Source of the DNA: an uncultured Poribacteria bacterium
Lineage (GTDB): Bacteria > Poribacteria > WGA-4E > WGA-3G
DNA: 64,000 bases
Direction: 5' to 3'
Assembly (NCBI GenBank): GCA_958295855.1
Contig: OY282383.1
Span: 183,178-247,177 of the forward strand
Each line of letters opens with the position of its first letter. Within the stretch, counting starts at the first letter, position 1. The translations under genes were made by a program, and so were the position numbers. Shown one piece after another: positions 3,605-60,322 of the stretch. The notes below the pieces were generated by a model. The model had not been told where the DNA came from. It did not search any database and saw only the letters and a program-made list of their open reading frames with translations.

Positions 3605-3610
3605 AATAGA

Positions 3611-14702: not shown

Positions 14703-14722
14703 TTTGTCCGCCCCGAAGCCGA

Positions 14723-29399: not shown

Positions 29400-29752
29400 G
29401 ATTTTTCATTTAGGGTAATGCCCCGCAAAGCGGGGAATCACCCTGTCACCTGTGTTGCGACGTGCATTCAGATGTAACCTTAGCCCCAGCGGGGCGACAT
29501 GTGTATAGCCGCGCATGCCGACCCTCCTCCTTAGCCCCAGCGGGGCGACAGGTGCTAAGGGTGCATAAGAAACCTCCGACGACATCTACTGTAGCGGCAG
29601 TGCCTTGTGCCTGCCCATCTACATCGTCAGAACACTCCTGCCAATGGTATTTGCCCCTGCTTTGCAGGGGTTTCATACCAAGTTGTGAATGGCCAATGAA
29701 CAACTTTTTTATTTCTTACTTATGCTGATTACTCCGCAAGGAAAGACAAAAA
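29400..29752. repeat. Mosaic of intergenic repeat modules (palindromic element, GCCCCAGCGGGGC hairpin x2, GGCAGTGCCTTGTGCCTGCC, CTCCGCAAGGAAAGACAAAAA)
   Basis: Module families recur across the window. Confidence 0.8.
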
Positions 29753-35700: not shown

Positions 35701-36058
35701 TATAACCGAGGCGCTGCCTGCGTACGCGCTGCTGCGTTACCTCAACTCCACACCGGTCGCATATCACTCCCTTGTGCTTTATCCGTTTATATTTCCCACA
35801 ACTACACTCAAAGTCTTTTTGCGGGCCGAAGATGGCTTCGCAGAATAGCCCTTCCGGTTCTGGCCGGAGGGAGCGATAATTAATGGTTTCTGCCTTCCTC
35901 ACTTCGCCGCAGTTACACCTTCCCATCTCCGGACAGATAAAGGGTTCTCTTGTGGATTGGGATGTGCTACGACGCTTACAACAGGTTTGCTTGGCTAATG
36001 CTTTTATCTCCTGGGGTGAGGCTATTTTTATCGAAATACTGTCAAACGCTGTTTTCAT
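29753..36058 (-). CDS. rpoC: DNA-directed RNA polymerase subunit beta' with a very large trigger-loop insertion (SI3-like, about 800 aa) containing SBHM-type repeats, an HNH motif and in-frame repeat elements
   Basis: 2101 aa. Canonical beta' blocks: NADFDGDQM and MRTFHTGGA, then an insertion, then GIPRVTELFEARRP. RBS AGGAA within the upstream repeat. Confidence 0.95.
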   Translation of the reverse strand: MKTAFDSISIKIASPQEIKALAKQTCCKRRSTSQSTREPFICPEMGRCNCGEVRKAETINYRSLRPEPEGLFCEAIFGPQKDFECSCGKYKRIKHKGVICDRCGVEVTQQRVRRQRLGYIQLAAPVSHIWFFKGIPSRIGTFCNLSSRQVERIIYFEAFVVVSVSDPDCPLQPRQVLTELEYEQAKHQYPGQFRAGTGAEVISEILNSIDLQAEKEKLTELLSETTSHQKKLKISKQLKQLSDFAASEQRPEWMIMDVIPVIPPDLRPLVSLEGGRFATSDLNDLYRRVINRNNRLRKLIQLRSPEVILRNEKRMLQEAVDAFFDNGRHGRRVAGPGNRPLKSLSDILKGKVGRFRQNLLGKRVDYSGRSVIVVGPELGLHQCGLPKRMAVELFKPFIIERLQAYNYTQTIKRAKHIAEHVESNSPVWEVLEEVIADHPVLLNRPPTLHRLGIQAFLPVLVEGKSIRIPPLVCKAFNADFDGDQMAVHVPLTVEAQAEAKLLMLSSHNILKPSHGGPIAVPELDMVLGPSFLTKELPGHAEDAKLLHEFIAQSVGAISESRLDELRQKPWYHRRYSNTEEVIAAHAAGQLKLHDSLQLFFGESSKHESSRPRATASPILTTVGRVIFNEVLPDKLKKIKGSSSEDAWIDEHSRQQVPFFNAEASGRELSKIVYDCFNELGTRVTVNMLEEIQKLAFHYATLSGISPCITDYLRPDNRDALVSKAQSEVDNLLATTSATDTGELENERIRIWLEAIEQVEKRMFSALPELETSLVERGDSRKIHPNVDADGVEIGAETVKGFSPVHIMADSGARARKNPFMQISAIVGLKSDQSNNILSTPITASYREGLDVLDYFNSTYGSRKGLVDTAMKTAASGYLTRKLVDVAQDVRVTTEDCKTLNSIQKFTTEGGSLAFKIRGRTAAEDIIHPDTGQVLKASEQLISEEEATQIEAARIKVVKVRSVLTCQADEGVCSKCYGIDLTTNNLVNVGEAIGIIAAQSIGEPGTQLTMRTFHTGGAVEAISEARQRKVLAKVKGTVRFRDFRPGSTVRQEGNLWIAIGSDSPSSAWETDNKVDMMNTIGQSAAAKQGVHPSSAKLDAPAYKVTQVNHPECPLLPGELLSEKQYTENAQRYKGFETETWQYEVTAVSERAKVNNGYSVLGQHFDYSSDAWKFLSEKYRDRAGWQCEQCGVALKDDKQFLHVHHRRGTKHNEPRDLAALCIGCHAEQPGEGHQKFSSSDEYRQFTEKYGNVRQPSETLVSEIDSLEPEIEETFFQHVEKLSEAAVSEHACHLQEGARLSQAQYDKARKQYGFGRFVTQKYRVTQVLHPDIAVTPRELLTLEKADELKAKMHTGFDGEWLSRDSETGQLFTETELASVGATQGGESEKGEEGNSLQSRAKPFSPQSGEHTHSARDSHFERVYRITERTRADFPYEVGEEVSASDIASWLTPFDLESKPVYVMHTEITGDANSGLDPAEYQIGRELTERAYEEARLKYRAFQVKELDAPKHVVTAVYHPEFPLKVGDVLTTDAARKEHKRFPGFNVQKLKHRVIHVHHPDCTLKPGDLLSDGEEKQFRATFPGITASSAVNTMGPFEAERLYHVTAVNHPECPLQPGELLTQKASSAHRRQYKGFEVQRYYEEVGAISESRQRLSEAQYKSLRKEDPEISGKFTSLYVVVSVHHPDLQLEVGTELTEKEYRSYQRQYKAFDVERVNQVTRDERTDSSVPQFDPGHILGEKEYRKLQKENQRKTYTVTDVFHPNCGHTVGEVLTEEAYKTTFAQYAGFETAELDMRMHIEIVNSQGAYVPHLIPLGYSFSVEEGDSIDAEDTLAELHEKTANRDIVAGIPRVTELFEARRPKRENAAEIAEIEGHVQAVGTKAGVPTYRIIDEGHTSRVYAIPDEKRRVTEGDWVDAGQPLTDGFLNPHDILRIGRTLINGVPVEGEEAVWAYLVDEVQKVYGARVINDKHIEAIVRQMLTKIRVTESGDTAFYPNEEVARDKFQRQNSAIDTAGGTPATGEPILQSISKASLSTDSFISAASFQQTTKVLTDAAVSGQTDRLFGLKENVILGRLIPAGSGFSDFQNIEVAYQGQPLDTASDDDD
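32380..32515 (-). other. HNH nuclease motif embedded in the rpoC trigger-loop insertion
   Basis: Motif: CEQCG, then LHVHHRRG, then N, then LCIGCH, spaced as in HNH domains. No intein splice-block signatures nearby. Confidence 0.6.
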
Positions 36059-36462
36059 ATTTTCGCTATTCCTTGCGGTGTAATCAGGTTGTAAGGTTCA
36101 TCGAGGGTTACACTGTAGATCTCGCTGGAGGTTTTCGCTATTCCTTGCGGAGTAATCAGGTTTTCGCTATTCCTTGCGGTGTAATCAGGTTGTAAGGTTC
36201 ATCGAGGGTTACACTGTAGATCTCGCTGGAGGTTTTCGCTAAAAGGGTTCGAAGGTGCCAAGAATTTTGACACCTTGTTCCTGTCTGTAATTTGCGGAGA
36301 ATTCAGCATGGGCAGGCACAAGGCACTGCCCCTACAGATACAAGCCTTGCATCAAAAACCTCCGACGAGATCTCTAATGCGATGACAACTACATAATGCC
36401 AATGGTATTTGCCCCTGCTTTGCAGGGGTTTTATACCAATTCGAGTTCTCCGCAAGGAATGA
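36059..36462. repeat. rpoB-rpoC intergenic mosaic: two copies of TTTTCGCTATTCCTTGCGGTGTAATCAGGTTGTAAGGTTCATCGAGGGTTACACTGTAGATCTCGCTGGAGG, plus GGGCAGGCACAAGGCACTGCCCCTACAG and a palindromic element
   Basis: Direct reading of the sequence. Provides the rpoC SD and the rpoB stop codon. Confidence 0.85.
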
Positions 36463-39400
36463 CTAAAGGTCTGAGTCGCGATTGAGTGTCACGTTCAGAC
36501 CAAGGCTCTGGAGTTCTCGCACGAGCACGTTAAACGATTCGGGCGTGCCGGGCGGGTTTGGGTTCAGCCCCTTAACTATGGATTCATAGATTTCCGATCT
36601 GCCTGCCACGTCGTCCGATTTGAGGGTGAGCATCTCCTGGAGCGTATGCGCAGCGCCATAGGCTTCAAGTGCCCACACTTCCATTTCACCGAGTCGCTGG
36701 CCGCCATGTTGCGCCTTACCGCCCAGAGGTTGCTGGGTGACAAGCGAGTAAGGGCCTGTGGAGCGCGCATGCATCTTGTCTGCTACAAGATGGTTCAGTT
36801 TAAGGAAATAGACGTAGCCGACTGTGACTTCTTGGGCAAAGGGTTCACCTGTCCTGCCATCATAAAGTACGCTTTTCCCTGTCTTTTTACTGCGTTCGGG
36901 GAGGTTCGTTTTTCCGAGCAGTTCAAAGATTTCAGTCTCTGTTGCTCCGTCAAATACGGGGGATTCTGCGCGTATGCCTAATGCGTGGCACGCCCATCCG
37001 AGGTGAATTTCTAAGATTTGCGCGACATTCATTCGTGATGGGACGCCTAAGGGGTTCAGCACGATTTCAACGGGTGTGCCATCTGGCATATAGGGCATAT
37101 CTTCAGCTGGCAGGATTTTTGCCACAACGCCTTTATTGCCATAACGGCCTGCCATTTTATCGCCAACGGAAATGGGACGTTTACTCGCGATATAAACTTT
37201 GACGCGTTTGATAACACCGGGTTTGAGTTCATCTCCCATCTCCAATTGCTTGAGGGCGCGTTCTTTCTCCTCTGTGTAGGCGGCTATCCTGCCTTGCGCC
37301 ATCTCCTCAACGCGGCGAATGTGTTCCATTGCGGCAGCATCCGTTACGCAAACGGATGATAACGCTATGCCAGGTGTGTCTAATAGCTCAGCTGTCACTG
37401 TGTCACCCGCAGCAAACGACGTTGGGGCAGCACTTTGTTCGGAATTCCCGCCCTGCCCCTTTGCCTCTTCACTGCTTTGCTTCCCGCCCGGTTTCCCATC
37501 ATGGGCAACCAGGAGGATAGCCTCCGCGTTGGTATGTTCCCCACTTTGCTTCCCGCCCTGCCCCTTTGCCTCTTCACCCTTTTCCCCATCGTGCCTAACC
37601 TGTGCCACTACAGGCAATGCAAGTTCACAACCAAGGAGCATGTTGCGTATTTCTTCGTCCTTCCGGTGGCGTATGGATGCGATGTGCGTCCTCCACGTCT
37701 CCTCGCTCTGCTTACGTTTGGATTCATAGCGCAATTCTTCAATTCTTGATGCGCCTGTTTCCGAACGTGTCCAGCCGCCGCGGCGTTGCAATCCATCTGG
37801 CTTTCGGGAAAACACTTTGACATCAATTACTATGCCTTCAACGCCGGGGCGGATGTAGGTGGAGGCATCGCGGACATCTCGTGCTTTTTCGCCGAAGATG
37901 GCGTGCAGCAGTTTTTCTTCGGGGCCATACTCACTTTCGCCTTTGGGCGTAATTTTTCCCACGAGGATACTGCCGGCACTGACAACACTGCCAACGCGGA
38001 TGATGCCTTCCTCATCAAGCTGCAAAAGGCGTTGCTCGCTCATGTTCGGAATGTCGCGCGTTATCTCCTCTGGGCCCACCTTCGTTTCGCGTGCCTCTAC
38101 TTCGACTTCTTCAATATGAATAGAGGTAAAGGTGTCCTTGCGGATGAGGGTTTCACTAATGAGGATAGAGTCCTCATAGTTGTGCCCGCCCCAGGGCATA
38201 TAGGCGCACAAGATATTTCTGCCGAGGGCGAGTTCACCTCCGTCGGTGGATGTGCCGTCGGCAATAACATCGCCTGCTTGCACTTTATCGCCTACAGAAA
38301 CGATTGGATGCTGGTGGATACAGGTGCCACTGTTACTGCGCTTGAAAGTCTGGAGTTTGTACTGGTCGTATCCCATTTCGCTAAATCCATGCTCGCCGGT
38401 GTCGGTATGCAGCACTTCGCCGGTGTGTATGAGGATTTCGTCAGCGGAGATACTTGCGACGGTGCCGCTGCGGATGGCGGTTCGGAGGGCTCCGGAGTCC
38501 AGTGCGGCGCGGGTTTCCATGCCTGTAGCTACAAGAGGGGCTTCCGGACGGATGAGGGGGACGGCTTGGCGTTGGTGGTTGGCTCCCATCAATGCGCGGT
38601 TCGCGTCTTCGTGCTCGAGGAACGGAACAAGGGAGGCAGAAACGCCAACTATCTGTTGCGGCGCGATGCCAACATAGTCAATTTCAGTGGATTTCGTTTC
38701 TTTGAATTCTATGACGTCGCCCTCTTTGGCATCGTTCCAGCGTCGCATGGCACGGACAGAATAGCCATGGCGGTTTTTCTTTCCTGCTTTATGGAAAGCA
38801 TCTGCGGATGCAATGGTACAGCCCAGCTCTGCATCTGCAGTCAAATACTCAATCCGGTCAGTGAGCTTACCCTCAACAATGACTTGATAGGGCGTTTCCA
38901 AGAACCCGTAGCGATTGACGCGTGCGAATGTAGCGAGCGATACAATCAGCCCGATTGAGGGCCCTTCTGGGGTTTCAAGCGGACATACACGCCCGAAATG
39001 CGTTTCGTGAACGTCGCGGACAGCTGCGGTTGCCCTGTCGCGATGTAGTCCGCCGGGCCCGATTGCGGAGATGCGGCGTTTGTGCGTCAACTCATCCAGG
39101 GGATTGATTTGTTGCATAAACTGCGAGAGTTGGTTAGAGCCAAAAAACTCACGGAGTGCCATCATGAGTGGTTTGGGGTTCACCAATGCGCCGGGTGTTG
39201 CTTTGGCGCGGTCCTTGAGGATATCGACAGCACTGAGGCGTTCGCGTGTCGTTCTACGGATTTGGAATAATCCCATTCTGAATTGGTTTTCTAGCAGTTC
39301 CCCGATAACTCTGACGCGCCGATTTTCGAGATTGTCCTGGTCGTCCTTGGGTACAAGTTTGTTCTGCACCTGTATGAGGTATGCCAGTGTTGCGGTGATA

Positions 39401-41013
39401 TCCTCTCCGGTGCGGCGGAGTGTGCGGACGCTTTCGTCTGGCATTGTCCATTTCCCCTGCGTGCGTGCTGCGGTATATCCATCAAGCGTGCGGGGTGTTC
39501 CGTCGGGTACCTCTCCATAAATAGGTAGTTCTCCCAATTTCTGATTGAGTTTGTATCTGCCGACAACGCCGAGGTCGTAGCGTTGTGGGTCGAAGAGTAG
39601 CCAATCGAGTTGTCGTTGTGCATTCTCTAGGGTAGCGGAATCCCCCGGTCTGAGGGTTCGGAAGATCTCCAGTCGTGCGGCGTCGCCTAGGGTATGCTGG
39701 GAGGCGTATTCAGATTCCCGGTCTTTTTCAAGGGTGTTGCGTAAAAATCGGATACGTTGGCAATCCTCTGGATGGAGGACGGTGAGTGCTTGGATGCCGG
39801 CTTCGGTGAGGCGGTCCAACTCAGTCTGGGTGAGTAGGGTATTGGCTGTGATGAGGCATTCACCAGTGTCGGGTGAAATGACTGGTTCAGCACAGACGCG
39901 CTCGACCTGGTTCTGAATATCCGTGGGTTGCAGGGGTGTAGCCGTAAACATTGCGTCTCCGTCATGGTAACCGTATCTGGCTCTCGCTTCTAGGTATTCG
40001 GCTTGGGTTAAGATTTGCCCGGGAGTCAACTCACATCCGGAGTTTTGAATAGCCAGGATGCGGTGGAGAGGTTCGGTCTGAAAGCCCTTGGATTTTCTGC
40101 GGGAGCTTGCGCGTTCTTTCTCGGTTATAATTTGTCCCTGCTCCAAGGGGCAGTCTGCGTCTGTGACTTCGGTAACGCGATGGCATTTTTCGGTGTCAAT
40201 CCCGTTATATTGCTTGCGTGCGTGCCTCAGTTCAGTGCTCGTTAGCAGTTGCCCGGGCGTGAGGGGACATTTGGCAAGGGAGACTTCTGTGACGCGCCAG
40301 CCTTGAAGTACGAGGCGTTCGGTTTTGGCATAAAGTTTCAAGATGTCGGCATCAGTTTCCCAGCCGAGGGCGCGGAGGAGTACGGTTGCTGGGAGTTTCT
40401 TGCGCTTGTCCATGCGGACATAGATTTGCTCCTTGGTATCCACCTCAAACTCTACCCATGCGCCGCGGTAAGGGATAATTTGTGCTGTGGGGCTTCGTTC
40501 GGTTGTCAAAGCTTTGTCTTTGGCACTCTCGAGGAAGATAACGCCCGGTGAGCGATGCAACTGACTGACTATGACTCTTTCGCTGCCATTAATAATAAAA
40601 CTTCCGCTCTCCGTCATCAATGGGACTTCTCCGAGATAGACGTCGGATTCTCGGATATCGACGACGTGGGGTTCGGTTGCATCCGGGTCTGCCTCGCGTA
40701 TGACGAGCATGACGCGTGCAGTAAGGGATACCTGATAACTCATCCCGCGTGCGACGCATTCTTGTAAGGTATATTTCGGCGTACCCAGGGAGTAGTGGAC
40801 AAATTCAAGGGTGTTGACTTCTGAGAAGTCCCGGATAGGGAACACCTCACGAAAAACGGCTTCAAGCCCATAATTTTCGCGTTTTTGGCCCTTGGTGGGT
40901 TCGACATGTCGCTGTAAGAAGTCTGCATAAGCTCGCTGTTGGGTTTCTATAAGATTCGGAAGCGGGGTTTGAACCTGTGTTTTGGCAAAAGAGATCCTGG
41001 GTTGTTTGTTCAC
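36463..41013 (-). CDS. rpoB: DNA-directed RNA polymerase subunit beta with lineage-specific insertions (BBM2/SBHM-like repeats in the N-terminal third; low-complexity tandem repeat in the SI2 region)
   Basis: ORF 36463..41166. Start moved to the GTG at 41011-41013 (AAGGAGA 7 nt upstream) because the ORF's upstream extension runs through a repeat element. Canonical beta blocks present, for example GDKMAGRYGNKGVVAKI. Confidence 0.9.
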   Translation of the reverse strand: MNKQPRISFAKTQVQTPLPNLIETQQRAYADFLQRHVEPTKGQKRENYGLEAVFREVFPIRDFSEVNTLEFVHYSLGTPKYTLQECVARGMSYQVSLTARVMLVIREADPDATEPHVVDIRESDVYLGEVPLMTESGSFIINGSERVIVSQLHRSPGVIFLESAKDKALTTERSPTAQIIPYRGAWVEFEVDTKEQIYVRMDKRKKLPATVLLRALGWETDADILKLYAKTERLVLQGWRVTEVSLAKCPLTPGQLLTSTELRHARKQYNGIDTEKCHRVTEVTDADCPLEQGQIITEKERASSRRKSKGFQTEPLHRILAIQNSGCELTPGQILTQAEYLEARARYGYHDGDAMFTATPLQPTDIQNQVERVCAEPVISPDTGECLITANTLLTQTELDRLTEAGIQALTVLHPEDCQRIRFLRNTLEKDRESEYASQHTLGDAARLEIFRTLRPGDSATLENAQRQLDWLLFDPQRYDLGVVGRYKLNQKLGELPIYGEVPDGTPRTLDGYTAARTQGKWTMPDESVRTLRRTGEDITATLAYLIQVQNKLVPKDDQDNLENRRVRVIGELLENQFRMGLFQIRRTTRERLSAVDILKDRAKATPGALVNPKPLMMALREFFGSNQLSQFMQQINPLDELTHKRRISAIGPGGLHRDRATAAVRDVHETHFGRVCPLETPEGPSIGLIVSLATFARVNRYGFLETPYQVIVEGKLTDRIEYLTADAELGCTIASADAFHKAGKKNRHGYSVRAMRRWNDAKEGDVIEFKETKSTEIDYVGIAPQQIVGVSASLVPFLEHEDANRALMGANHQRQAVPLIRPEAPLVATGMETRAALDSGALRTAIRSGTVASISADEILIHTGEVLHTDTGEHGFSEMGYDQYKLQTFKRSNSGTCIHQHPIVSVGDKVQAGDVIADGTSTDGGELALGRNILCAYMPWGGHNYEDSILISETLIRKDTFTSIHIEEVEVEARETKVGPEEITRDIPNMSEQRLLQLDEEGIIRVGSVVSAGSILVGKITPKGESEYGPEEKLLHAIFGEKARDVRDASTYIRPGVEGIVIDVKVFSRKPDGLQRRGGWTRSETGASRIEELRYESKRKQSEETWRTHIASIRHRKDEEIRNMLLGCELALPVVAQVRHDGEKGEEAKGQGGKQSGEHTNAEAILLVAHDGKPGGKQSSEEAKGQGGNSEQSAAPTSFAAGDTVTAELLDTPGIALSSVCVTDAAAMEHIRRVEEMAQGRIAAYTEEKERALKQLEMGDELKPGVIKRVKVYIASKRPISVGDKMAGRYGNKGVVAKILPAEDMPYMPDGTPVEIVLNPLGVPSRMNVAQILEIHLGWACHALGIRAESPVFDGATETEIFELLGKTNLPERSKKTGKSVLYDGRTGEPFAQEVTVGYVYFLKLNHLVADKMHARSTGPYSLVTQQPLGGKAQHGGQRLGEMEVWALEAYGAAHTLQEMLTLKSDDVAGRSEIYESIVKGLNPNPPGTPESFNVLVRELQSLGLNVTLNRDSDL

Positions 41014-41039
41014 TTGATGCGGTCTCCTTTTGGTACCGG

Positions 41040-41739
41040 ACTCTGGTGGTGGGCAGGCACAAGGCACTGCCCGTACGGCGCAATGAAATCCCGAGAATAA
41101 AAAAGTTGTTTGCTTTTCGCGCACAACTTGGCTTGCAAGCTTCGCCAAAAAGTGGTGGGCAGGCACAAGGCACTGCCCCTACGGACGCGCCGCCTTTTAA
41201 CCTATTGGCAATAGCATAACAGAATATTATACACTATAATTAGGGGAAAGTCAAGAAAAAATGCATTTTTGTTATTCCTTGCGGAGTAATCAGCATAAGT
41301 AAGAAATAAAAAAGTTGTTCATAAAAATTCACAACTTGGTATGAAACCCCTGCAAAGCAGGGGCAAATACCATTGGCAAGACACATCCAGCAATGCACTG
41401 TAGCTCTCGTTGGAGGTTTCTTATGCAACCTTTCGGGCCAATGGCTGCCCGCCCACCCGTTTCCGTATTGTGGCTAAAAAAGGGGGTGCTTGTTTTTGAC
41501 GTTAATCAAGCTAGGGCATTTAGTTTTCAGTAGTTTTGAGTAAGGGGCGTGGTTGGGTGAGGATTAAGAATTTTCGTCTATGCCTAGTATTTTGATTGGA
41601 TTATGTGGTGTTAATGGCATTGGAGCTCTCGTCGGAGGTTTTGGTCTATGTCTAGTATAATGTGGTATAAAGGTTGACACACCACGTTAACTTGGTATAC
41701 TGTATTAAGGTACGGAAACCCCGTGCTACGGGAGACAAA
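41040..41739. repeat. Repeat-dense intergenic region (GGGCAGGCACAAGGCACTGCCC x2, palindromic element, CCCGCCCACCCGTTTCCG, GGGCATTTAGTTTTCAG, and others)
   Basis: Module families shared with other intergenic regions. Confidence 0.8.
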
Positions 41740-42270
41740 ATGGGAACAATTACAGTACCAGCACCTGTCAAAGCTATCATCGGTGTGTTGACAGGGGACG
41801 CGCTTCTTCTGCCAACTGTCTATCAGGAATTGACAGCTCAGCTCGGGCACATTGACTTCACGAGTGAACTTTTGCCTTTCACCAGCACAACCTATTATGA
41901 AGCTGAGATGGGACGAGGGCTCCAACGGCAGTTTATTAGCTTTGAAAGGCTCATCGATGCAGGGACATTGGCAGAGATGAAACTGTTTACAAATCAGGTG
42001 GAGCAGGCGTTTGCAGAAGAGAAAACCTCGCGACGGCGCGTCAATTTAGATGCAGGTTATGTGTGCTCAGCGAAGTTGGTACTCGCCTCAACGAAAGATC
42101 ACGCGCACCGTATCTACCTCCGCGCCGGTATCTATGCGGAAATGACGCTCCGATTCTATCGCAAAACCTTCCAACCGTGGGAATGGAGTTATCCTGACTA
42201 CCGTTCCCCGGACTACATCGCTATTTTTAATCACATTCGCACAATCTATAGGGAGCAACTCAACGCATGA
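41740..42270 (+). CDS. Hypothetical protein (possibly DUF4416-like)
   Basis: ORF 41674..42270. Start moved to MGTITVPAP (AAAATG). The stop overlaps the next gene's ATG (ATGA). Confidence 0.35.
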   Translation: MGTITVPAPVKAIIGVLTGDALLLPTVYQELTAQLGHIDFTSELLPFTSTTYYEAEMGRGLQRQFISFERLIDAGTLAEMKLFTNQVEQAFAEEKTSRRRVNLDAGYVCSAKLVLASTKDHAHRIYLRAGIYAEMTLRFYRKTFQPWEWSYPDYRSPDYIAIFNHIRTIYREQLNA

Positions 42271-43574
42271 ACAGATATTATGAGAGAAACCTCACCGCTA
42301 GTCCCAGTGACTCGGCTGGAAGACAAGAAGGGTGGAAGAAGGGAAAAAACACCGCCCCCCAACCTTACTGTCTTCCATACTGTCTGCCATTTTTCCAATC
42401 TTCAAAAATACTAGTCTGTTGCATCATTTGTGCTTTTTGGTTAGTGGTATTTACCCCTGCTTTGCAGGGGCAGATACCCGGTCAAGGTTTTGCCGGGGCG
42501 CAATCGACTGAGTCACCCCGAGCGCGGGCGCGCGAGCTCGGCATCTATATCGGGAGCCTTCCTACCGGTGAGTACAACGCAATCACCGACGTGCCCGGGG
42601 TCAAAGTAGGACACGTCACCCTGAAGCAGGGGGAGTCAATTCGCACTGGTGTCACCGCTATCCTTCCGCGCGATGATATTTGGGAAGCGCGTCTGTTTGG
42701 CGCAGCACATACCATTCATGGCAACGGTGAAGCCACCGGCATCGCCCGAATTAATCAAGCCGGGTGGATTGAGTCCCCGATTTTGTTGACAAATACCCTG
42801 AGTGTCGGGGCTGTTCACGATGGTGTTGTCCGGTACATTGTCAAGCGGTATCCGGACAATAACATTGTGCTGCCGATTGTGGCAGAGTGTTACGATGGCG
42901 GCTTGAACGACATCAGCGGGCTCCATGTAACTGCACAGCATGCCATTGAATCCATTGAGAACGCCACCTCCGGTAAGGTAGCAGAGGGCAGTGTAGGCGG
43001 CGGTACAGGTATGCGATGCTACGGGTTCAAAGCCGGTATCGGTACTGCCTCGCGGGTACTCCCACCAAACAGGGGCGGATGGAAAGTCGGGGTACTCGTC
43101 AACGCAAACGGCGGACGACGACATCAGTTACGCATTGATGGCGTGCCGGTGGGTAAGGTACTTGATGATGCCCAGCAGAACCCAGGCAGGGACGGCTCGT
43201 TTATCATCGTTATCGCGACGAACGCGCCGTTAACGCATCGGCAGTTGAAACAGCTGGCGATGCGTGCAACGCACGGCCTCGCCCGCACAGGCACACCAAG
43301 CACAGATGGCAGTGGTGAGTTCGTTATCGCGTTTTCTACCGCCAATATTTTTCCACGCGGCACAGAAACAGGTACCTTTCACATCCAGATGGTAGTCAAC
43401 TCACGCTTGAATTCTCTCTTTCAAGCTGTCATTGAGGCAACAGAGGAGGCTATTGTGAATTCAATGACGATGGCAACCACAACCACTGGCCGCAACGGCA
43501 GAACAATGCACGCGATTCCATTGGATGGGTTGCAACAGGTGATGCAGCAGTTTTCGTCATTCCTTGCGGAGTAA
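42267..43574 (+). CDS. Peptidase family S58 / P1 (DmpA-like L-aminopeptidase / D-Ala esterase-amidase family)
   Basis: 435 aa with a DmpA/ArgJ-like fold signature. A palindromic element sits inside the N-terminal hydrophobic region. The C-terminal FSSFLAE* is encoded by a repeat module. Confidence 0.55.
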   Translation: MNRYYERNLTASPSDSAGRQEGWKKGKNTAPQPYCLPYCLPFFQSSKILVCCIICAFWLVVFTPALQGQIPGQGFAGAQSTESPRARARELGIYIGSLPTGEYNAITDVPGVKVGHVTLKQGESIRTGVTAILPRDDIWEARLFGAAHTIHGNGEATGIARINQAGWIESPILLTNTLSVGAVHDGVVRYIVKRYPDNNIVLPIVAECYDGGLNDISGLHVTAQHAIESIENATSGKVAEGSVGGGTGMRCYGFKAGIGTASRVLPPNRGGWKVGVLVNANGGRRHQLRIDGVPVGKVLDDAQQNPGRDGSFIIVIATNAPLTHRQLKQLAMRATHGLARTGTPSTDGSGEFVIAFSTANIFPRGTETGTFHIQMVVNSRLNSLFQAVIEATEEAIVNSMTMATTTTGRNGRTMHAIPLDGLQQVMQQFSSFLAE

Positions 43575-43826
43575 TCAGCATGGGTATGAAACCCCTGCTT
43601 TGCAGGGGCAAATACCATTGGCAGGATAGTTCTGACGGGCAGGCACAAGGCACTGCCCCTACAGTAGATCTCGTCGGAGGTTTCTGATGCAAGTTTTTTA
43701 ATGCTTAATTAGCAGGGAACACACTACAACTCATGTCGGAGGTTTCTGACGCAATGTTCGTAGGGGTGGTGCCTTGTGCCTACCCACATACTGGAGTATA
43801 TCGCGATTCGGACATCGCTCCTACGT
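43555..43826. repeat. Intergenic mosaic (TTTTCGTCATTCCTTGCGGAGTAATCAG, palindromic element, GGGCAGGCACAAGGCACTGCCCCTACAG x2, GATTCGGACATCGCTCCTACG)
   Basis: Module families shared across the window. Confidence 0.85.
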
Positions 43827-45953
43827 CTACCTCTGTCCGCCGGGGGCAAGTGCCGCCGGTACCACCTCATGATGTGAAAACTCAAGCGTGAACGCCCCGC
43901 GCCCCTGCGTCATTGAGCGGAGCTGGGTTGTATATTGGAACGTTTTTGCTAACGGGATAAAAGCACTGACAAAGTTGAACGCACCTTGCGTACCGCTTTC
44001 GTTAATCTGGGCGCGGCGTGCATTCAGGTCGCCGATAACCTTTCCGACGTGTTCATCTGGTGCCGTGATATGTATCCGCATAATCGGTTCAAGGAGCAGG
44101 GGTTTCGCCGTTCTGACCGCGTTTTCAAAGGCGAGCACAGCCGCCGCCTCAAAGGCGACTTCTGAGGAATCTGTTGAATGACAGGAACCACCGGTGAGCG
44201 TTACCTTGATGTCTTGCAGTGGGTATCCGATGAGCGCACCGCTTCCCATCGCACCTTTGAGCGCGTTCTGAATGGCAGGAATGTATTGCCGTGGAATCTG
44301 CGTCTCATCCGTCTCATCCGCAAACTGAAACCCGCCGTCTCGTTCCAATGGGGCAACAGTGAGTACCACATCGCCATAAATGCCTTCCTCATCTGTTTTA
44401 TGGATGTGTGTGCCTCGCGCTTCAGCAGGCGTGCTGATAGTCTCCCGATATGCCACCTGTAGTTTGCTCACGCGCGCGTTCACACCAAACTCGCGGCGCA
44501 TCCGGTCGGTGAGAATTTCTAGGTGGAGTTCGCCCATCCCAGAGATAATCCGTTGCCCCGTCTCTTTATCAATACCGACGGTGAACGTCGGGTCTTCGTC
44601 CATTAATTTTTGGAGTGTCTCCTCCAGTGTGTCTGCATCACTGGCGCGTTCAGGTTCAATTGCGATGGAGATAACGGGCTGTGGAAAAGTGATGGATTCT
44701 AACAGGATAGGATGCTTCGCATCTGCCAATGTATCGCCTGTTTTCGTATCCCGAAGCCCGACGAGGGCAACGATGTCTCCTGCGTAAGCGGCATCACAAA
44801 CCGCCTCTTTGTTGGCATGCATCTGTAGAATGCGGTTCACCCGCTCCCGTTTGCCGGAACCGACGTTATAGATGACTTCCCCACGTTTCAGGGTGCCTGA
44901 ATAGATACGGCAATAGACCAGTTTGTCCACAGTGGGGTGGCTTGCGACTTTAAAGGCTAACGCTGCAAACGGGGCAGTATCATCTGAGTAGCGGGTGGTA
45001 TTTGCCCCCGCTTTGCGGGGCAGATTCTTGGTGGCTTTATTGTGGCTGGAGGTTGTTCTCACAGAAGAGGTATTTGGCACTTCACCTTCAATTGGGGGTA
45101 GGTCGACAGGCGAAGGCAGAAAATCAATGATTGCATCAAGCAGGGGTTGAACGCCCCGATTTTTGAGGGAACTTCCGCATAATACAGGGACTAACGTTCC
45201 CTTCAAAGTAGCAGTACGAATGCCTGCCACTAACTCGGCGGAGGTTATCTCCTGGCCCTCCAAGTATTTTTCAAGCAACGCGTCCTCTTCAACAACGACG
45301 CTCTCAAAAAGGGTTTCTCGGGCGAGTGCCACTTCGGCGTGAAACTCATGTGGAATTTCGGATTCTTGATAGGTCTGCCCGAGGTTTGCCGCATCCCAAT
45401 GCATCGCCTTCTGTCTTACCAGGTCAACAACCCCTGCGAAATCGGTTCCCTCACCAATTGGCAATTGGAGGGGCACCGGATTGGTGCCGAGTCGCTCCTT
45501 CATCATCTCAAGCACGCGAACGAAATTGGCACCGACCCTATCCATCTTATTGACGAAGATGATGCGCGGTACATCGTAGCGTTCAGCTTGATGCCAGACA
45601 GTTTCTGACTGTGGCTCCACACCGCCAACAGCACAAAAAAGTGCAACAGCACCATCTAACACGCGCAAGGAACGTTCCACTTCTACTGTGAAATCGACAT
45701 GGCCGGGCGTATCAATCAGGTGAATCGCGTGTTCTCTCCAGAAACAGGTTGTTGCGGCGGCGGTAATCGTCACCCCGCGTTCTCGTTCTTGCGCCATCCA
45801 ATCCATTTCTGCAGTGCCGTCATCTACTGCACCAATCTTATGCTTTTTGCCAGTATAGAAGAGAATTCGTTCGGTTGTGGTTGTTTTGCCTGCATCGATG
45901 TGCGCTGTAATACCGATGTTGCGCACGTTTTCAATAGAATATTCGCGTGCCAT
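43827..45953 (-). CDS. fusA: Elongation factor G (fusA-type; could be a paralog, as no rpsL/rpsG precede it)
   Basis: 708 aa with canonical G-domain motifs: [21 protein letters not shown]. Carries an in-frame insertion from a palindromic element in the G' region. Confidence 0.9.
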
Positions 45954-46097
45954 TTTTTTGTCATTCCATTAATTGGGTTTCTGCTCCGATTTTTCCGTTG
46001 TCAAAATCGGGTTTCTTACTCATTGTAGTGTGTTCCCTGCTAATTAAGCATTAAAAAACTTGCAATTGAAAATAGTGGCAAACATCGGAGCGCGCGC
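45954..46097. repeat. Intergenic repeat modules (GGAATGACAAAAAAA SD-bearing module, CATGCGGAAAAATCGGAGCAGAAACC-like, GTTCCCTGCTAATTAAG, CCACTATTTTCAATAGTGG-like)
   Basis: Shared with 50200-50550 and 57360-57775. Confidence 0.75.
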
Positions 46098-47102
46098 CTA
46101 TGGGTCGTTATGCCATTGCAGCACAACACCCAGTAAGTTGGGATTCCACGCCATGAGCAGTTGATATGCCTTGGGTGCGTCGTGCCCGGCCACTCGATGG
46201 CTTATCAACGGGGTAACCGTAAAGCGTTTCTGTGCGATGAGCGATAACATCAATAGACTGTCCTCTTCAAGCGTCCAGAAATTCGGTGAGGACTCTTGGC
46301 GAGGCCGAATCGAATTGTGGGCACCATAGAGAATCAGTCCTTTTTTATGCACATCGCGATAGAAGTTAACGTTCGGTGTCTCACCACGCGTACTTGCCAA
46401 CAGCACCACCCGAGCTCCCCAACCTGCCACATCTAAGGCAGTGCTAATCGCCTCGGGGTGGCCTGTTGCCTCAATGACAACTGTGGGGCCTTTGCCTTTG
46501 GTAGCGTCACCTAACTGTTCGGCGAAATTAGCATCTTCAGGGTTTAGCGTGCAGTCTGCTCCAATGCTTTTAGAGATGTCGAGGCGACAATCGGTCAGAT
46601 CTGCCGCAATGACAGGCAGTGCCCCGCTCAGCTGCGAGAGTTGCAGCGCAAGCAAGCCGATAAGTCCCTGCCCTAAAACTAATGTTGCCTCTCCCAATTC
46701 AATTTGTGCCTTGCGTACACCTTGTAATGCAATCGCGCCGAGGTTAAAAAAGACAGCTTCTTCGGCTGGTACATCCGGCGAATCCACCTTTAGTAGCCGA
46801 TTGGGGGACGTTACAAAGTGACTGGTATGTCCTTGTGTTGAGGCGACACGCTCGCCTATCTCACATTCAGTCACATGCTTTCCGACTGCTATTACCTTGC
46901 CGATGTTGCTGTAACCTGGGCGCGATGGATACCTACCTCGCGCATTGGGAAGCCCTAATAAAAATGCGCGTTCTGTGCCCGGGCTGATGAGTGTGCATTC
47001 GGTCGCGACAAGCACCTCGTCATCCGAGATCGACGGTACTTCAAACGTTTCAACCTCAACTTTGGCACGACTCGGCCAAACAACCCGTTGTCCTTTCATC
47101 AC
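46098..47102 (-). CDS. Zinc-binding alcohol dehydrogenase family (MDR superfamily) oxidoreductase
   Basis: 334 aa. GLIGL Rossmann motif and an N-terminal GroES-like domain. Confidence 0.6.
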   Translation of the reverse strand: MMKGQRVVWPSRAKVEVETFEVPSISDDEVLVATECTLISPGTERAFLLGLPNARGRYPSRPGYSNIGKVIAVGKHVTECEIGERVASTQGHTSHFVTSPNRLLKVDSPDVPAEEAVFFNLGAIALQGVRKAQIELGEATLVLGQGLIGLLALQLSQLSGALPVIAADLTDCRLDISKSIGADCTLNPEDANFAEQLGDATKGKGPTVVIEATGHPEAISTALDVAGWGARVVLLASTRGETPNVNFYRDVHKKGLILYGAHNSIRPRQESSPNFWTLEEDSLLMLSLIAQKRFTVTPLISHRVAGHDAPKAYQLLMAWNPNLLGVVLQWHNDP

Positions 47103-47275
47103 TCTTCGGACTGGCGACTCCTGCCTTTAGGTAGAAGAGGAAAGTCCGCCTCCTGTTAAATTCCCTTTTCAGCATGTGGTATTTAACTCTGCAAAGCAGG
47201 AGCAGATACCCTGTGCCGTTTTTGGGGAGTATACTACAAAAACAACTATCCTTCAAGCCCTAAATTGTACAAACG

Positions 47276-47392
47276 GGTCACGGCACGCGGAGGGCTCCTA
47301 CGACTTTGGTCACGGCACGCGGAGCGTGCCTACTACTTTGTGCCTACTACTTTTGGTCACGGCACGCGGAGCGTGCCTACTACTGTTTCCAT
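47276..47392. repeat. Tandem hairpin modules (GGTCACGGCACGCGGAGCGTGCCTACTACT x3, one degenerate) overlapping the 3' end of the DUF1156 gene
   Basis: Same family as 3611-3642 and 14592-14702. Encodes VVGTLRVP plus the stop codon. Confidence 0.85.
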
Positions 47393-50164
47393 CTGCTGTG
47401 GGGCACCCATCGCGGCAGAGATATACGGCCACTCTGTCACGAGGTTGTTGTACGCCGCAGCACTCGACGCATCGCCACGCACCTCATAGTACGCATACAA
47501 GACGCGCGCCAAACGTTTCGCAGACTCCGAATCGCGCATCGCACGCGCAACACCAGCACAGCCCAAAATACCACCGCTGTGCTCTACGCCCGATAAATGC
47601 CACATCATCCGCAGACACCCCTCCCACGCTGTCATCTCTTTTCGATTTTCACGCTCAGCGTATTCTTCCGCTCGCAACAGCCGAACCTTGCCGCGTGACG
47701 CGATGAGCACTCTGTCGTGCAGCGCGGCGATGTCTACATCCTTCGCTTTTGAAAGCCCCTCTGCATCCCCGAAGTTGCCCGCCATGTAGCCGTGCTGCTG
47801 CAACCACGTCAAACAGAACTGACTCTCCGCATCCAGTTCGCCTGTCTCTTTTTCATGATAGGCGGTGATTTCGTTGTTGATGTGCATGAGTGCCTCGCGG
47901 ATTGGCACAATCTCACCGCTGATTCGCATCACTTTGCTATAGCGGGAGTAGACCTCCATGCCGGGGCCGATGGCGGCTTGTGCTAAATCGACCGGCCTGA
48001 TGTTTGTGATGCGGGTGAGTCTGTCAAGTGCGGGTGGCATCTCTTTTTTCAGTGCTTGTAGAAATTCGTTGCGGGTTATGGTGGGGGCATCCTCAGGGCG
48101 CGGCCGACACACTAACACAACAGAGGATGCCAGCGCGTTTTTAGTCGCCTTAAGAGCTGTTGGCCGCTCTGTCCGCATTGGCCAGGTGCCGGTTACCTGA
48201 AAACCAGCGTTGACGATTGCCGTGAGCATCGTCTCCCAGCCGGTGGAGGTTTTTCCATCCTGTTCCTCTTCCTGCTGTTTGTAGGCGTAGAAAATGGATG
48301 TGGGAAATACATCTGTGCAGTGTTGTCGCATTTGCAGCAATGCCTTGCCGAGCAATTCCTCAAAGTGTTGTGTAGGATCTTTAAATCGAGGACTCGCGGT
48401 TATCTCCTCATCCTTTGGAGTCATCATGCCGGCAAACAGTTCGGTATAGGTATCGCGCAGAAGGGGTCTCAGCCAGACATAGAAGAACTCGGACAAATCT
48501 GCATAGCCGATATTATCGTAGTAGGGCGGATCTGTAATAAAAACAGGCATATCCTGAGCATGCGGCGTAGTACATACATCCGCCTGATACGCTTCACCAG
48601 TGTTCGCTGAGGTAGGGAACCTCTCAACAACCCTTGCAATCCATGCTATCTGCGCCAGCCAGTTTTGCGTTGAAGTTGAGAACGGATTTGCTTCAGCAAA
48701 ATCCCACATCATTGAGATTTTTTGCATGCCGAAAACTGGCATAATACTATTCCCCCCGGTGTCCCATATAGCGAAACTGGAACCACTCTCAGCGGTCCGG
48801 TCAATGGCAAAGGCAAGGTAAGTACAAACAGTTGAGGCGTATTCGGATTCTCCTCCATCTTGCAGGATAAGATTACGGACTTCTCCCAGAAGGTCTTTGA
48901 AAGTAGTGAGAGCCGTTAACTGACGTTCTGTGAAAAGTTGATGCCACTCTGTAAACCCATAATTCTGTATAGCAAAACCTAACGCTCGATGCGGCAGTTT
49001 ACCCCTAGGTTTCCACGTAGGTTGAACAGACTGGGCAGTGTGGATATGCGTATTCGCGGGAGGCACGAATATTTTGGGTTTACCGTCTGCGACTATCGCT
49101 GTCATTACCGCTCCCATCTTTCCTGCTTTCGCTTGTTCTCGGACATAAGGCAACTTGACAGCACTCCCGCACGCAAAGCAGTAGGCACCTGTTCGGCTGA
49201 CTGTAGGCTTCGGCACGCCTTCATTATCGGTTTGCACGACCCATGAAATCGTGTTGGATTCCCGGTCAACAACCGGCTTTGTCCAATGCTCATTACCTTT
49301 CTTTCTTGAGAGTTGGAAGGTTTTCATCAGCGGCATCTGGAGTCCACACGCAGGATTGATACACGGCACTGTGCGCGCCCAGATCCATGCCACAACCGTG
49401 GCAGTTTGCCCTGTGGGCAATTCCACGGGTGGATAGAGATGTCCGATGCGTTTGTGTGCTGCCGCGCGCATCCACGCCCCGTAGTAACGGATGTCGGATG
49501 CCAAGCCTGCGGTGCCTTTCCATGGCACACGCGTTTTCCTTTTACCTGTGCCGGTGAACATTCCCATCGGATCGGCATCAGGATGGACCGGTTTCTGGTT
49601 GTGAAACGTCGGGGGTAATTCAATCATCGCCTTGTTGAGCAGGACAGGCAGCGGATTTAGATCGGAGGCGCGGGCACGTAATCCCAGGCGTTGTGCCTCA
49701 AGCGGGATGGAGCCGCCCCCACAAAACGGATCATAGATTGCGGGGCAGTGGTCGCGGAGGTATTGTAGCACTGCATCGGGATTGTTTTCAAACCGCTGGC
49801 GACAATCCGTTAGGTCTTCGGCGTTGTTGCGTGCGACAGAGATGGCGATTTCACGGCGTGCCTCTGCCAAGAGGTTTTCATCGGTGCTATTTTTCCAGAG
49901 CACGAGTCTCCGGAGGAGGTGATGGAGTCGGTTTCGTTCTGCGTTCTGCTCGGGTTCGGTTGGGAATTCGTCTATGCATTCGGAGGGGTCGTCCACCATG
50001 CTGGCGAAGATAACGGCGCGGCATGCAGCGAGGGGACGACGCGCCCACCACTTGTGCAGTGTTGAGGGGTGTCCATGCGTCAGCGAAGCGTCTTTTGCAG
50101 ACTCTTGGTTGATATCTTGGAGGGGTATATTGACCTCAATGAGTTTTTTGCGGTAAGTCGTCAT
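47357..50164 (-). CDS. DUF1156-domain DNA methyltransferase (putative N6-adenine / N4-cytosine, DPPY motif); orphan, with no DUF499/DUF3780 partners nearby
   Basis: 935 aa. N-terminal HKWWARRPLAA motif typical of DUF1156. FITDPPYYDNIGYADLSEFF catalytic motif. Confidence 0.6.
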   Translation of the reverse strand: MTTYRKKLIEVNIPLQDINQESAKDASLTHGHPSTLHKWWARRPLAACRAVIFASMVDDPSECIDEFPTEPEQNAERNRLHHLLRRLVLWKNSTDENLLAEARREIAISVARNNAEDLTDCRQRFENNPDAVLQYLRDHCPAIYDPFCGGGSIPLEAQRLGLRARASDLNPLPVLLNKAMIELPPTFHNQKPVHPDADPMGMFTGTGKRKTRVPWKGTAGLASDIRYYGAWMRAAAHKRIGHLYPPVELPTGQTATVVAWIWARTVPCINPACGLQMPLMKTFQLSRKKGNEHWTKPVVDRESNTISWVVQTDNEGVPKPTVSRTGAYCFACGSAVKLPYVREQAKAGKMGAVMTAIVADGKPKIFVPPANTHIHTAQSVQPTWKPRGKLPHRALGFAIQNYGFTEWHQLFTERQLTALTTFKDLLGEVRNLILQDGGESEYASTVCTYLAFAIDRTAESGSSFAIWDTGGNSIMPVFGMQKISMMWDFAEANPFSTSTQNWLAQIAWIARVVERFPTSANTGEAYQADVCTTPHAQDMPVFITDPPYYDNIGYADLSEFFYVWLRPLLRDTYTELFAGMMTPKDEEITASPRFKDPTQHFEELLGKALLQMRQHCTDVFPTSIFYAYKQQEEEQDGKTSTGWETMLTAIVNAGFQVTGTWPMRTERPTALKATKNALASSVVLVCRPRPEDAPTITRNEFLQALKKEMPPALDRLTRITNIRPVDLAQAAIGPGMEVYSRYSKVMRISGEIVPIREALMHINNEITAYHEKETGELDAESQFCLTWLQQHGYMAGNFGDAEGLSKAKDVDIAALHDRVLIASRGKVRLLRAEEYAERENRKEMTAWEGCLRMMWHLSGVEHSGGILGCAGVARAMRDSESAKRLARVLYAYYEVRGDASSAAAYNNLVTEWPYISAAMGAPQQMETVVGTLRVP

Positions 50165-50551
50165 AGTGCTTTCTGCGCGCCCCTGAAGCCGGGCGGAGAC
50201 AGGGCTCCGCCCTTACAATTCAAAGCCATTTGATATGCGCCTGCGCGGGCAGGGCGGACCGCATCAGATGCGCCTGGTTTGTGCTCCGCGCAGAGTAATC
50301 AGGAAGTTTAACCACTATTGAAAATAGTGGCAAACGTCAGGATAGTTCTGACGGGCAGGCACAAGGCACTGTTTCCCCTACAGAGTAGATGTCGTTAGAA
50401 GTTTCTTATGCAACCTTAATTAGCAGGGAGTACTCTAGAACTAATAAGAAACCCGATTTTGAACCGGGTATCCGCCCCTGCTTTGCAGGGGTAAATACCT
50501 CATGCGGAAAAATCGGAGCAGAAACCGAATTGATGAAAGACTGCTTGTTAA
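50165..50551. repeat. Intergenic mosaic (CCACTATTGAAAATAGTGG hairpin, GGGCAGGCACAAGGCACTG, CCTTAATTAGCAGGGAG, palindromic element, CATGCGGAAAAATCGGAGCAGAAACCG)
   Basis: Module families shared with 46000-46090 and 57360-57480. Confidence 0.8.
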
Positions 50552-57359: not shown

Positions 57360-57775
57360 CAATTCGGTTTCCGCTCCGATTTTTCCGCATGAGGTATTAA
57401 CCCCTGCAAAGCAGGGGCGGATACCCGGTTCAAAATCGGGTTTCCGGCAAGTTTGTAGCGTGTTCCCTGCTAATTAAGGTTGCATAAGAAACCTCGGACG
57501 AGAGCTACTGTAGCGGCAGTGCCTTGTGCCTGCCCATCTACATCGTCAGAACACTCCTGCAACCTGATTACTCCGCAAGGAATAACAAAAAGACGAGATC
57601 TGCCACAACGTCACAACAACGAATAATTAAGCGTTAAAATACTTGCATAAGAAACCTCCGACGAGAGCTACTGTAGCGGCAGTGCCTTGTGCCTGCCCAT
57701 CTACATCGTCAGAACACTCCTGCAACCTGATTACTCTGCAAGGAATGACAAAAAACTCTGCAAGGAATGACAAAA
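57360..57775. repeat. Intergenic mosaic between fabH and fabD, including two copies of GAAACCTC(C/G)GACGAGAGCTACTGTAGCGGCAGTGCCTTGTGCCTGCCCATCTACATCGTCAGAACACTCCTGCAACCTGATTACTC(C/T)GCAAGGAAT(A/G)ACAAAAA
   Basis: Duplicate unit of about 110 bp at 57478-57590 and 57645-57758. The last copy supplies the fabD SD (AAGGAATGACAAAAATG). Confidence 0.85.
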
Positions 57776-58756: not shown

Positions 58757-59075
58757 CTCCCACAATACACTGTAGATCTCGTCGGAGGTTTTCGTCATTC
58801 CTTGCGGAGTAATCAGCATGGGTATGAAACCCCTGCTTTGCAGGGGCAAATACCATTGGCAAGATAGTTCTCACAATACACTGTAGATCTCGTCGGAGGT
58901 TTTCGTCATTCCTTGCGGAGTAATCAGCATGGGTATGAAACCCCTGCTTTGCAGGGGCAAATACCATTGGCAAGATAGTTCTCACAATACACGGTAAATC
59001 TCGTCGGAGGTTTTCGTCATTCCTTGCATGAGAAATCTCCGACGAGATCTGCCACAACGTCACAACTACAACCTT
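58717..59075. repeat. Tandem composite repeats of about 113 bp (TTTTCGTCATTCCTTGCGGAGTAATCAGCATGGGTATGAAACCCCTGCTTTGCAGGGGCAAATACCATTGGCAAGATAGTTCTCACAATACACTGTAGATCTCGTCGGAGG), two full copies plus partials
   Basis: Unit starts at 58717, 58789, 58902 and 59015. Confidence 0.9.
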
Positions 59076-59108
59076 AGAACTAGGCAATGACAAAAGATTA
59101 GGAACGAC

Positions 59109-60181: not shown

Positions 60182-60322
60182 CGTCACATTTGACGTATGG
60201 GCAGTGCCACAGTTGCCAATAACCCAACGAAGTTGGGCTATTGCCTTGTGCCTGCCCGCAACTGAACTGGCAATTGCCCCTGCTTTGCAGGGGTTAATAC
60301 CACTAAAAAAAGGATCCGTCTC

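Follow-up and report, generated by a model that had tools for sequence, protein, structure and literature searches.

How does a hairpin-forming palindrome come to be read as part of elongation factor G (EF-G), and does it serve the protein or only ride along in it? This question is raised by a stretch of 64,000 nucleotides (nt) from an uncultured bacterium that its homologues place in the Candidatus Poribacteria (GenBank assembly GCA_958295855.1, contig OY282383.1, positions 183,178 to 247,177), hereafter called the window. At 44994-45031 of the window lies the 38-nt string GGTGGTATTTGCCCCCGCTTTGCGGGGCAGATTCTTGG, antisense to a 708-residue open reading frame (ORF) for EF-G. A sequence-only reading of this DNA had picked out the palindrome and interpreted it as an in-frame insertion of a dispersed element; the palindrome is real, the coordinates then given to it (44995-45030) were one base off at each end, and the insertion itself was borne out by the comparisons below. 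We conclude that the segment at 44997-45032 is very probably a partly decayed copy of a lineage-specific palindrome resembling repetitive extragenic palindromic (REP) sequences, inserted in a hypervariable surface loop of EF-G, where it is most likely a neutral passenger.

The palindrome is an in-frame insertion in EF-G

The EF-G gene (fusA) occupies 43827-45953 on the minus strand, and its ORF together with its NCBIfam and Pfam matches marks it as intact and canonical. We compared it with TARA scaffold L001, which encodes P0003 (EF-G 91% identical, 696 residues), and with L002 and L003, the loci encoding P0004 (EF-G 88% identical). The window, L001 and L002/L003 have in common the gene order ADH, EF-G, S58 peptidase, DUF4416, rpoB and rpoC. 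Nucleotide alignment revealed a clean gap of exactly 36 nt (12 codons) in L001 and in L002/L003 at the position of the element: at this site the window reads AAAG/CCACC...AAATA/CCACCCGC, as against AAAGTTGTCCGC. The insertion spans 44997-45032 on the minus strand and supplies codons 308-319, that is 12 residues, with the sense strand ACCAAGAATCTGCCCCGCAAAGCGGGGGCAAATACC; its boundaries may slide about 3 nt either way (44994-45034), with CCACC flanking both sides. In the same alignment a second member of the family, in the S58 peptidase gene, corresponds to a 39-nt gap in L001 and L002, and the intergenic copies that begin at 43581, 41335 and 36401 are missing from both. Alignment with the orthologues gave no repeat-free relative whose loop has the same length and a similar sequence over the part that the element encodes.

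The insertion could also be followed in a much closer genome. L085, an independently assembled circular contig of 5.5 Mb (ENA assembly), encodes P0002, an EF-G 99% identical to that of the window, and it carries the same 36-nt insert with one substitution (T308I). Because L085 was assembled independently, an assembly artefact is ruled out. Furthermore, since the insert is common to the window and L085 and the L001 site is empty, the insertion is dated after the split from L001 (synonymous divergence, dS, 0.44) and before the split from L085 (dS 0.03).

The insert belongs to a dispersed palindromic family

The element is one of a dispersed family of palindromes of about 36 nt with the consensus GGTATNNGCCCC(T/C)GC-TTT-GC(A/G)GGGGCAAATACCACC. 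The unit is laid out as GGTAT, 3-4 bases, CCCC(T/C)GC, a TTT or AAA loop, GC(A/G)GGGG, 3-4 bases and ATACC, often followed by ACC; the consensus is a near-perfect palindrome, and stems reach up to 15 bp. Two stem subtypes, CCCTGC/GCAGGG and CCCCGC/GCGGGG, were distinguished, the EF-G copy being of the second. Its core hairpin at 45004-45021, GCCCCCGC-TTT-GCGGGGC, is an exact match to the 18-mer of the family, and one of its ends is a 15-nt string, GGGGCAAATACCACC, identical to that of the copy in fabD.

The abundance of the family in the window is far beyond chance. Allowing up to 3 mismatches, we counted 12 occurrences of the 18-nt core GCCCCGCAAAGCGGGGGC, a G+C-rich hairpin, where dinucleotide shuffles predict 0.06. 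A regular expression recovered 19 copies of the whole unit, and an nhmmer profile built from these 19 recovered 21 at E < 1e-3, including the EF-G copy (44995-45026, E = 8e-6). By a tally from gene coordinates, non-coding DNA, which makes up roughly 16% of the window, holds two thirds of them (14 of 21), an enrichment of about tenfold; these typically stand just past gene ends, many within 50 nt of a stop codon. The other seven are inside ORFs, one each in the genes for EF-G, FabD, an S58 peptidase and a class II aldolase, and three in rpoC. The family is therefore REP-like in the broad sense: a short palindrome in many dispersed copies, mostly extragenic and near gene ends. No match to an Rfam family was found at any copy, and a terminator scan flagged none of the copies near EF-G (41000-47500), which have no T-run.

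Two further properties bear on how such a unit can enter genes. The consensus has no stop codon in any of its six frames, and the frame in which the palindrome is read differs from gene to gene, so that the encoded peptides differ accordingly. As a rough estimate, perhaps a quarter of palindromes of like size and G+C content would be open in all six frames by chance, so this openness is no evidence of adaptation. In addition, a larger composite repeat contains the palindrome in some of its copies but not in all, so that the palindrome behaves as an independent unit.

The family is lineage-specific and apparently recently active

As far as the available data show, the family is confined to this lineage. 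With the profile, L001-L003 and the 80 loci taken from as many other Poribacteria species (1.6 Mb altogether) gave no copies. An exact-pattern scan of a genome collection gave no matches, in a collection that does not include the species of the window and whose best EF-G is 82% identical, and a scan of the JGI metagenomes and IMG/VR with 25 nt of the consensus gave none either. A looser, gapped pattern matched only two JGI contigs, L086 and L087, with one look-alike each, which is uninformative. This look-alike, GGTATTTTGCCCCGCATTGCGGGGCAAAATACC, lies at 2488-2520 of L086 and 1186-1218 of L087; the local sequence is identical in the two, which otherwise have no similarity to the window. In the library searched we found no literature linking Poribacteria with REP elements, with REPINs (REP doublets forming hairpins), with RAYTs (REP-associated tyrosine transposases) or with MITEs (miniature transposable elements with inverted repeats), and none describing an insert of this kind in EF-G.

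Within the lineage, the copies differ even between the window and L085. Over the 22 kb that the two share, the window has 8 copies and L085 has 4: the copies at 47175, 43581, 41335 and 36401 are not in L085, and those in the EF-G and S58 genes are common to both. At one intergenic site (50466-50502 in the window, 5655-5690 in L085) the two genomes carry different subtypes, CCCTGC/GCAGGG versus CCCCCGC/GCGGGGG, with opposite loops (AAA and TTT); L085 has CCCCCGCTTTGCGGGGG where the window has CCCTGCAAAGCAGGG. This would mean either two separate insertions at the site or the replacement of one copy by another in which the two arms changed in concert. Because of these differences in copies and the switch of subtype, the family was still moving or being replaced after the window and L085 diverged; it has been recently mobile and was apparently recently active.

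The insertion lies in a hypervariable loop at the start of domain II

The sequence-only reading had assigned the insert to the G' subdomain, and in this respect it has to be corrected. In the window protein, the insert follows the Pfam domain GTP_EFTU (residues 9-281) and precedes EF-G_D2 (residues 328-411). Against Thermus thermophilus EF-G (1dar, the best solved relative, E = 6e-228), 21 residues (301-321) are unaligned and fall between Thermus residues 300 and 301. We take the G' subdomain of the Thermus protein to span about residues 158-253 and its domain II to begin at about 282. Because of this alignment position and these domain limits, the site is in domain II and not in G': it is the first hairpin, or start, of domain II, where this adjoins the G domain.

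The loop that received the insert (residues 291-322; 44988-45083, minus strand), as delimited by an alignment of 120 orthologues, the Pfam limits and the Thermus gap, is hypervariable. Among the 120 best homologues so aligned, the loop is long, basic and of varying length in each Poribacteria EF-G; the whole proteins measure 695 to 724 residues, and nothing like the element is seen in their loops. The segment from PPIEG to SDD has 32 residues in the window protein and 14 in E. coli EF-G. Of this excess of about 18 residues, which the sequence-only reading had noted, only 12 come from the element, since all Poribacteria EF-Gs have a long loop.

The same loop has also grown or changed in other Poribacteria. 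L002 carries at 8127-8189 (and L003, identically, at 5229-5291) an unrelated 63-nt insert that forms a strong hairpin, with GRRLWAVGCQLTGDRKPKADC in place of TSSVGTTSG; the 75-nt stretch around it folds at -38.6 kcal/mol (z = -3.7). No further copies of this insert were found in all the DNA fetched (19 kb for that lineage), so its status as a repeat is unproven. A more distant species (L083, 10001-12217) has a tandem duplication in the loop, AERLANDEKAERLANDEKAERMA (AERLANDEK). Because of this hairpin insert and this duplication, we consider the EF-G loop tolerant of insertions. We also considered the idea that the long loops of the phylum are decayed palindromes, and rejected it as unsupported in other lineages: in 84 loci the loop DNA has hairpin z-scores grouped around 0, with L002 and the window itself (-2.0) as the only outliers, and none of the loops has repeats in common with its flanking 10 kb.

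A passenger, a functional hairpin or a relic?

Our favoured account runs as follows. The family has spread through this Poribacteria genome, mostly into intergenic spacers, and one copy was inserted in EF-G where the G domain meets domain II, in a loop whose sequence and length vary freely. Three features let this copy survive: its length divides by three, all six of its frames are free of stop codons, and almost any sequence or length is accepted in the loop. The element would then be read through as 12 extra residues of EF-G, most likely as a neutral passenger rather than a functional module. As for its movement, our best guess, by analogy with REPs and REPINs (PMC3116915, PMC3733652), is that a single-stranded hairpin may be mobilised by an HUH/Y1 (RAYT-like) transposase that is supplied in trans from another part of the genome.

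Several points weigh against this account. Pfam scans of the credible ORFs revealed no relevant transposase gene, Y1 included, in the 64-kb window. The element contains neither GTAG nor CGTC, the tags that mark the REP super-families linked and not linked to RAYTs (PMC3733652). There is no consistent target-site duplication: a 5-nt CCACC flanks the EF-G copy, and no such repeat is evident at the S58 site. At the other empty sites the sequences are too diverged for a target duplication to be judged, FabD having been compared at the protein level. With regard to the protein, the 12 residues are presumed to be translated, and our view that the insert is most likely neutral is drawn solely from the variability of the loop. 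An AlphaFold2 model built on a 40-sequence Poribacteria alignment, in which all sequences are at least 80% identical, reached a mean pLDDT (predicted local distance difference test score) of 41, too poor to place the insert, and was not used.

The alternative that survives best, improbable as we judge it, is that the hairpin has been retained in the fusA mRNA or DNA for a function, be it a translational pause that aids domain-wise folding between the G domain and domain II, a determinant of RNase sensitivity or stability, or the binding of a protein of the nucleoid or gyrase type, as suggested for REPs. In its favour, both carrier genomes have the same, undamaged G+C-rich core stem, the insertion coincides exactly with a domain boundary, and roles in mRNA stabilisation, termination and supercoiling have been suggested for other REPs (PMC3733652). 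However, identity of the core in these two genomes carries no weight, since at a dS of only 0.03 about 0.3 changes are expected in 36 nt. The remainder of the hairpin points the other way. Its outer stem has decayed on one side, with AGAAT instead of GGTAT, and on the sense strand it folds at -12.8 kcal/mol, compared with -19 to -23.7 kcal/mol in well-preserved copies; among the well-defined copies, at about -20 kcal/mol, it is the second weakest. This decay and the weakened hairpin argue against selection for structure, being the opposite of what such selection would produce, and the decay fits drift or mild selection against a strong hairpin within the mRNA. Furthermore, the closest relatives and 80 further Poribacteria species lack the element in EF-G, and in FabD, the S58 peptidase, the aldolase and RpoC it occupies positions that bear no relation to this one.

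It is also conceivable, with quite a low probability, that this EF-G is dispensable or degenerating while a second, insertion-free EF-G does the work, so that the back-up gene, rather than a permissive loop, would explain why the insert is tolerated. Two EF-G paralogues are common in bacteria, and the gene in the window stands outside a str operon (rpsL, rpsG, tuf). The protein itself speaks against this idea. It passes the NCBIfam equivalog model TIGR00484 by a wide margin (917.5 bits, cut-off 659.4) and stays below the cut-offs of the EF-G2 models (466 against 890 for NF009377), and all five Pfam EF-G domains (GTP_EFTU, D2, III, IV and C) are found in it. In addition, in each of the 80 Poribacteria species retrieved the syntenic orthologue is this gene, the loop is hypervariable throughout the phylum, and the ratio of nonsynonymous to synonymous divergence (dN/dS) is 0.14 against L085, in which the insert is already present, and 0.09 against L001. 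This EF-G is still under purifying selection.

Finally, we give hardly any credence to the idea that the 12 codons were originally present and that the L001/L002 lineage lost them by deletion, with the likeness to the family being secondary (the family having been seeded, for example, from the EF-G gene): L001 and L002 are closer to each other (88% of nucleotides) than either is to the window (84-85%), so that on the four genomes alone a single deletion is as parsimonious, but the segment belongs, at full length, to a palindromic family of 21 copies and shares its 15-nt end with the FabD copy, none of the 80 more distant Poribacteria has a similar loop sequence, the insertions of the same type in FabD and S58 also match clean gaps in relatives, and a protein loop is an unlikely source of a perfect palindrome with a 15-bp stem.

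Relation to known repeat systems

In-frame palindromic insertion has already been established by the Rickettsia palindromic elements (RPEs) and by intragenic REPs, and the passenger reading involves no new principle. According to Di Nocera et al. (2013, PMC3733652), REPs with GTAG or CGTC tags are palindromes of 20-40 bp, present in many copies, mostly between or just downstream of genes; a minority lie wholly within ORFs of known proteins in several phyla, where they add about 10-30 residues, presumably in loops or linkers, and are argued to be probably neutral. The paper also describes a 3-bp 'tail' past the palindrome, which resembles the ACC tail of the Poribacteria element (PMC3733652). 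The latter ends in GGTAT and ATACC(ACC), with no GTAG or CGTC tag in the aligned copies, and so is not a member of these super-families; the main text of the paper names none of EF-G, FabD and RpoC as a host (PMC3733652).

RPEs are mobile palindromes found in-frame in unrelated Rickettsia housekeeping genes and read through in a manner compatible with function (Ogata et al. 2000, in PMC10969869). The classic ones are about 150 bp long and encode a conserved peptide (PMC10969869), and the shorter RPE-4 and RPE-6 correspond to CGTC-tagged REPs (PMC3733652). The likeness lies in the apparent in-frame insertions in the EF-G (36 nt), FabD (36 nt) and S58 (39 nt) genes, whose ORFs are intact and whose relatives have empty sites. 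The Poribacteria element differs in its length of about 36 nt, in encoding peptides that depend on the frame, in having no sequence relationship to RPEs and in residing in a non-reduced genome of about 5.5 Mb; with another size, another peptide and another lineage, it is not a member of an RPE family.

The REPIN/RAYT system comprises hairpin repeats that vary between close relatives and form tandem higher-order arrays, with a proposed single-stranded intermediate and a transposase acting in trans (Bertels & Rainey 2011, PMC3116915). The Poribacteria repeats likewise vary between close relatives and form tandem arrays. The replicative unit of a REPIN is an inverted doublet of two REPs beside a RAYT gene (PMC3116915), whereas most Poribacteria copies are single palindromes, the exceptions being a pair spaced 27 nt apart in rpoC and direct tandems at 111 nt. 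With regard to MITEs, which have terminal inverted repeats and a target-site duplication and derive from an insertion sequence of the same genome, the Poribacteria element as a whole is one palindrome, a possible 5-nt direct repeat (CCACC) flanks the EF-G copy alone, none was seen at the S58 site, and no parent insertion sequence was identified. Another parallel is found in the small dispersed repeats of filamentous cyanobacteria, reportedly described by Elhai and colleagues in Genome Research in 2008, which are said to be palindromes of 21-27 nt, nested in repeats, occasionally in genes, and with no associated transposase. They resemble the Poribacteria element in their very small size and their nesting; their sequence is unrelated and they are restricted to cyanobacteria.

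These comparisons leave room for a bolder proposal, which we regard as unlikely though worth stating: the palindrome may be an undescribed kind of ultra-small mobile element, tagless, independent of RAYTs and now active in one Poribacteria lineage, which, being open in six frames, repeatedly colonises surface loops of essential proteins (EF-G, RpoC and FabD). If this were true, then, together with the hairpin in L002, insertion of hairpin elements would, time and again, have given this phylum its unusually long loops and its oversized housekeeping proteins, and the genome would be a natural system for catching such an element as it moves.

On the passenger reading, the locus is a natural example of an essential, highly conserved translation factor that absorbs a mobile hairpin without loss of function. 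The loop between the G domain and domain II of EF-G is a permissive insertion site that could serve for tagging or engineering, and the case is of moderate interest for studies of small mobile repeats and of EF-G engineering. It further brings to notice an undescribed and apparently recently active family of repeats from an uncultivated phylum, and it carries a warning for annotation, as short palindromes may sit inside real genes and repeat arrays create spurious ORFs.

Other copies of the family

The sequence-only reading had linked the EF-G palindrome with similar elements in rpoC and fabD, and both belong to the same family. The fabD gene (57767-58756; Pfam Acyl_transf_1) has a 36-nt in-frame copy at 58148-58183 on the plus strand, found by nhmmer and coding for the block GINPCLQGQIPP. 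These 12 residues occur in the window alone and are absent from the FabD of 15 other Poribacteria species, the sequences of which were taken from the flanks of the EF-G loci. The 39-nt in-frame copy in the S58 peptidase gene (42267-43574) lies at 42443-42481 on the plus strand and adds about 13 residues, approximately VVFTPALQGQIPG, directly after an N-terminal hydrophobic segment. Upstream of it the N-terminus is conserved in all four genomes; the site is empty in L001 and L002, and L085 has the copy with a 3-nt difference.

Within the rpoC ORF (29753-36058, 2101 residues), a regular expression, nhmmer and folding all pointed to two adjacent copies at 31831-31896 (27 nt from start to start, 31843 and 31870) and to a degenerate copy at 32784-32815, all on the minus strand. 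This ORF encodes 2101 residues in the window and 1940-1958 in three relatives, including L085 with 93% identity, an excess of roughly 150 residues. In the alignment with L085, several in-frame blocks of 12-55 nt are seen only in the rpoB of the window (36463-41166). The remaining intragenic copy, at 26067-26100 on the minus strand, lies in the class II aldolase gene (26031-27116), close to its 3' end, and was recovered by both the regular expression and nhmmer.

The intergenic copies closest to EF-G include one between the converging S58 and EF-G genes (43581-43619), one upstream of rpoB and DUF4416 (41335-41374) and one between rpoB and rpoC (36401-36440), all three absent from L001, L002 and L085. 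A degenerate copy at 47175-47212, absent from L085, and the copy at 50466-50502, of a different subtype in L085, were detected by nhmmer. The others were found both by the regular expression and by nhmmer: at 15870-15907, 27752-27790, 29409-29443 and 29643-29682; after fabH (57390-57426); after fabD, where two copies (58819-58857 and 58930-58968) are nested in a tandem 111-nt composite repeat; and before and after fabF (60266-60304 and 61576-61616).

Other repeats and neighbouring genes

The window also holds other repeats. A second family, GTAGGGGCAGTGCCTTGTGCCTGCCC, has 8 copies (27280-27305, 27467-27492, 27654-27679, 29591-29616, 43760-43785, 57510-57535, 57673-57698 and 60232-60257) and starts with GTAG followed by a short hairpin, like a classic GTAG-tagged REP, which hints that the genome may encode a RAYT. 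A third, GGTCACGGCACGCGGAGCGTGCCTACTAC, occurs at 3608-3640, 14597-14721 and 47273-47402; its reverse complement, GTAGTAGGCACGC...GCGTGCC, is also GTAG-tagged, and it is partly arranged in 37-nt tandem arrays that yield spurious ORFs such as 47176-47706. Composite intergenic tandem arrays of three 187-nt, three 111-nt and two 109-nt units lie at 27186-27743, 58748-59080 and 29179-29396, respectively. Their modules are TTTTCGTCATTCCTTGCGGAGTAATCAG and ACTGTAGATCTCGTCGGAGGTTTCTGATGC, between which the palindrome may or may not be nested, and the 109-nt pair is 100% identical and starts within the 3' end of a fumarase gene.

A 935-residue DUF1156 protein, which we take to be methyltransferase-like, is encoded at 47357-50164 between the ADH and HtrA genes in the window and in L085; it is absent from L002/L003, where ADH stands directly after HtrA. 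As this gene is bordered by GTAG-tagged repeats, it may be a small inserted island. At the beginning of the window, a gene for a YhgA-like Transposase_31 protein of the PD-(D/E)XK family (101-1243) and one for a Type ISP restriction-modification enzyme (3613-6720) are flanked by tandem repeats of the 9-nt unit AATCCGCGT, at 19-62, 1399-1424 and 3562-3596.

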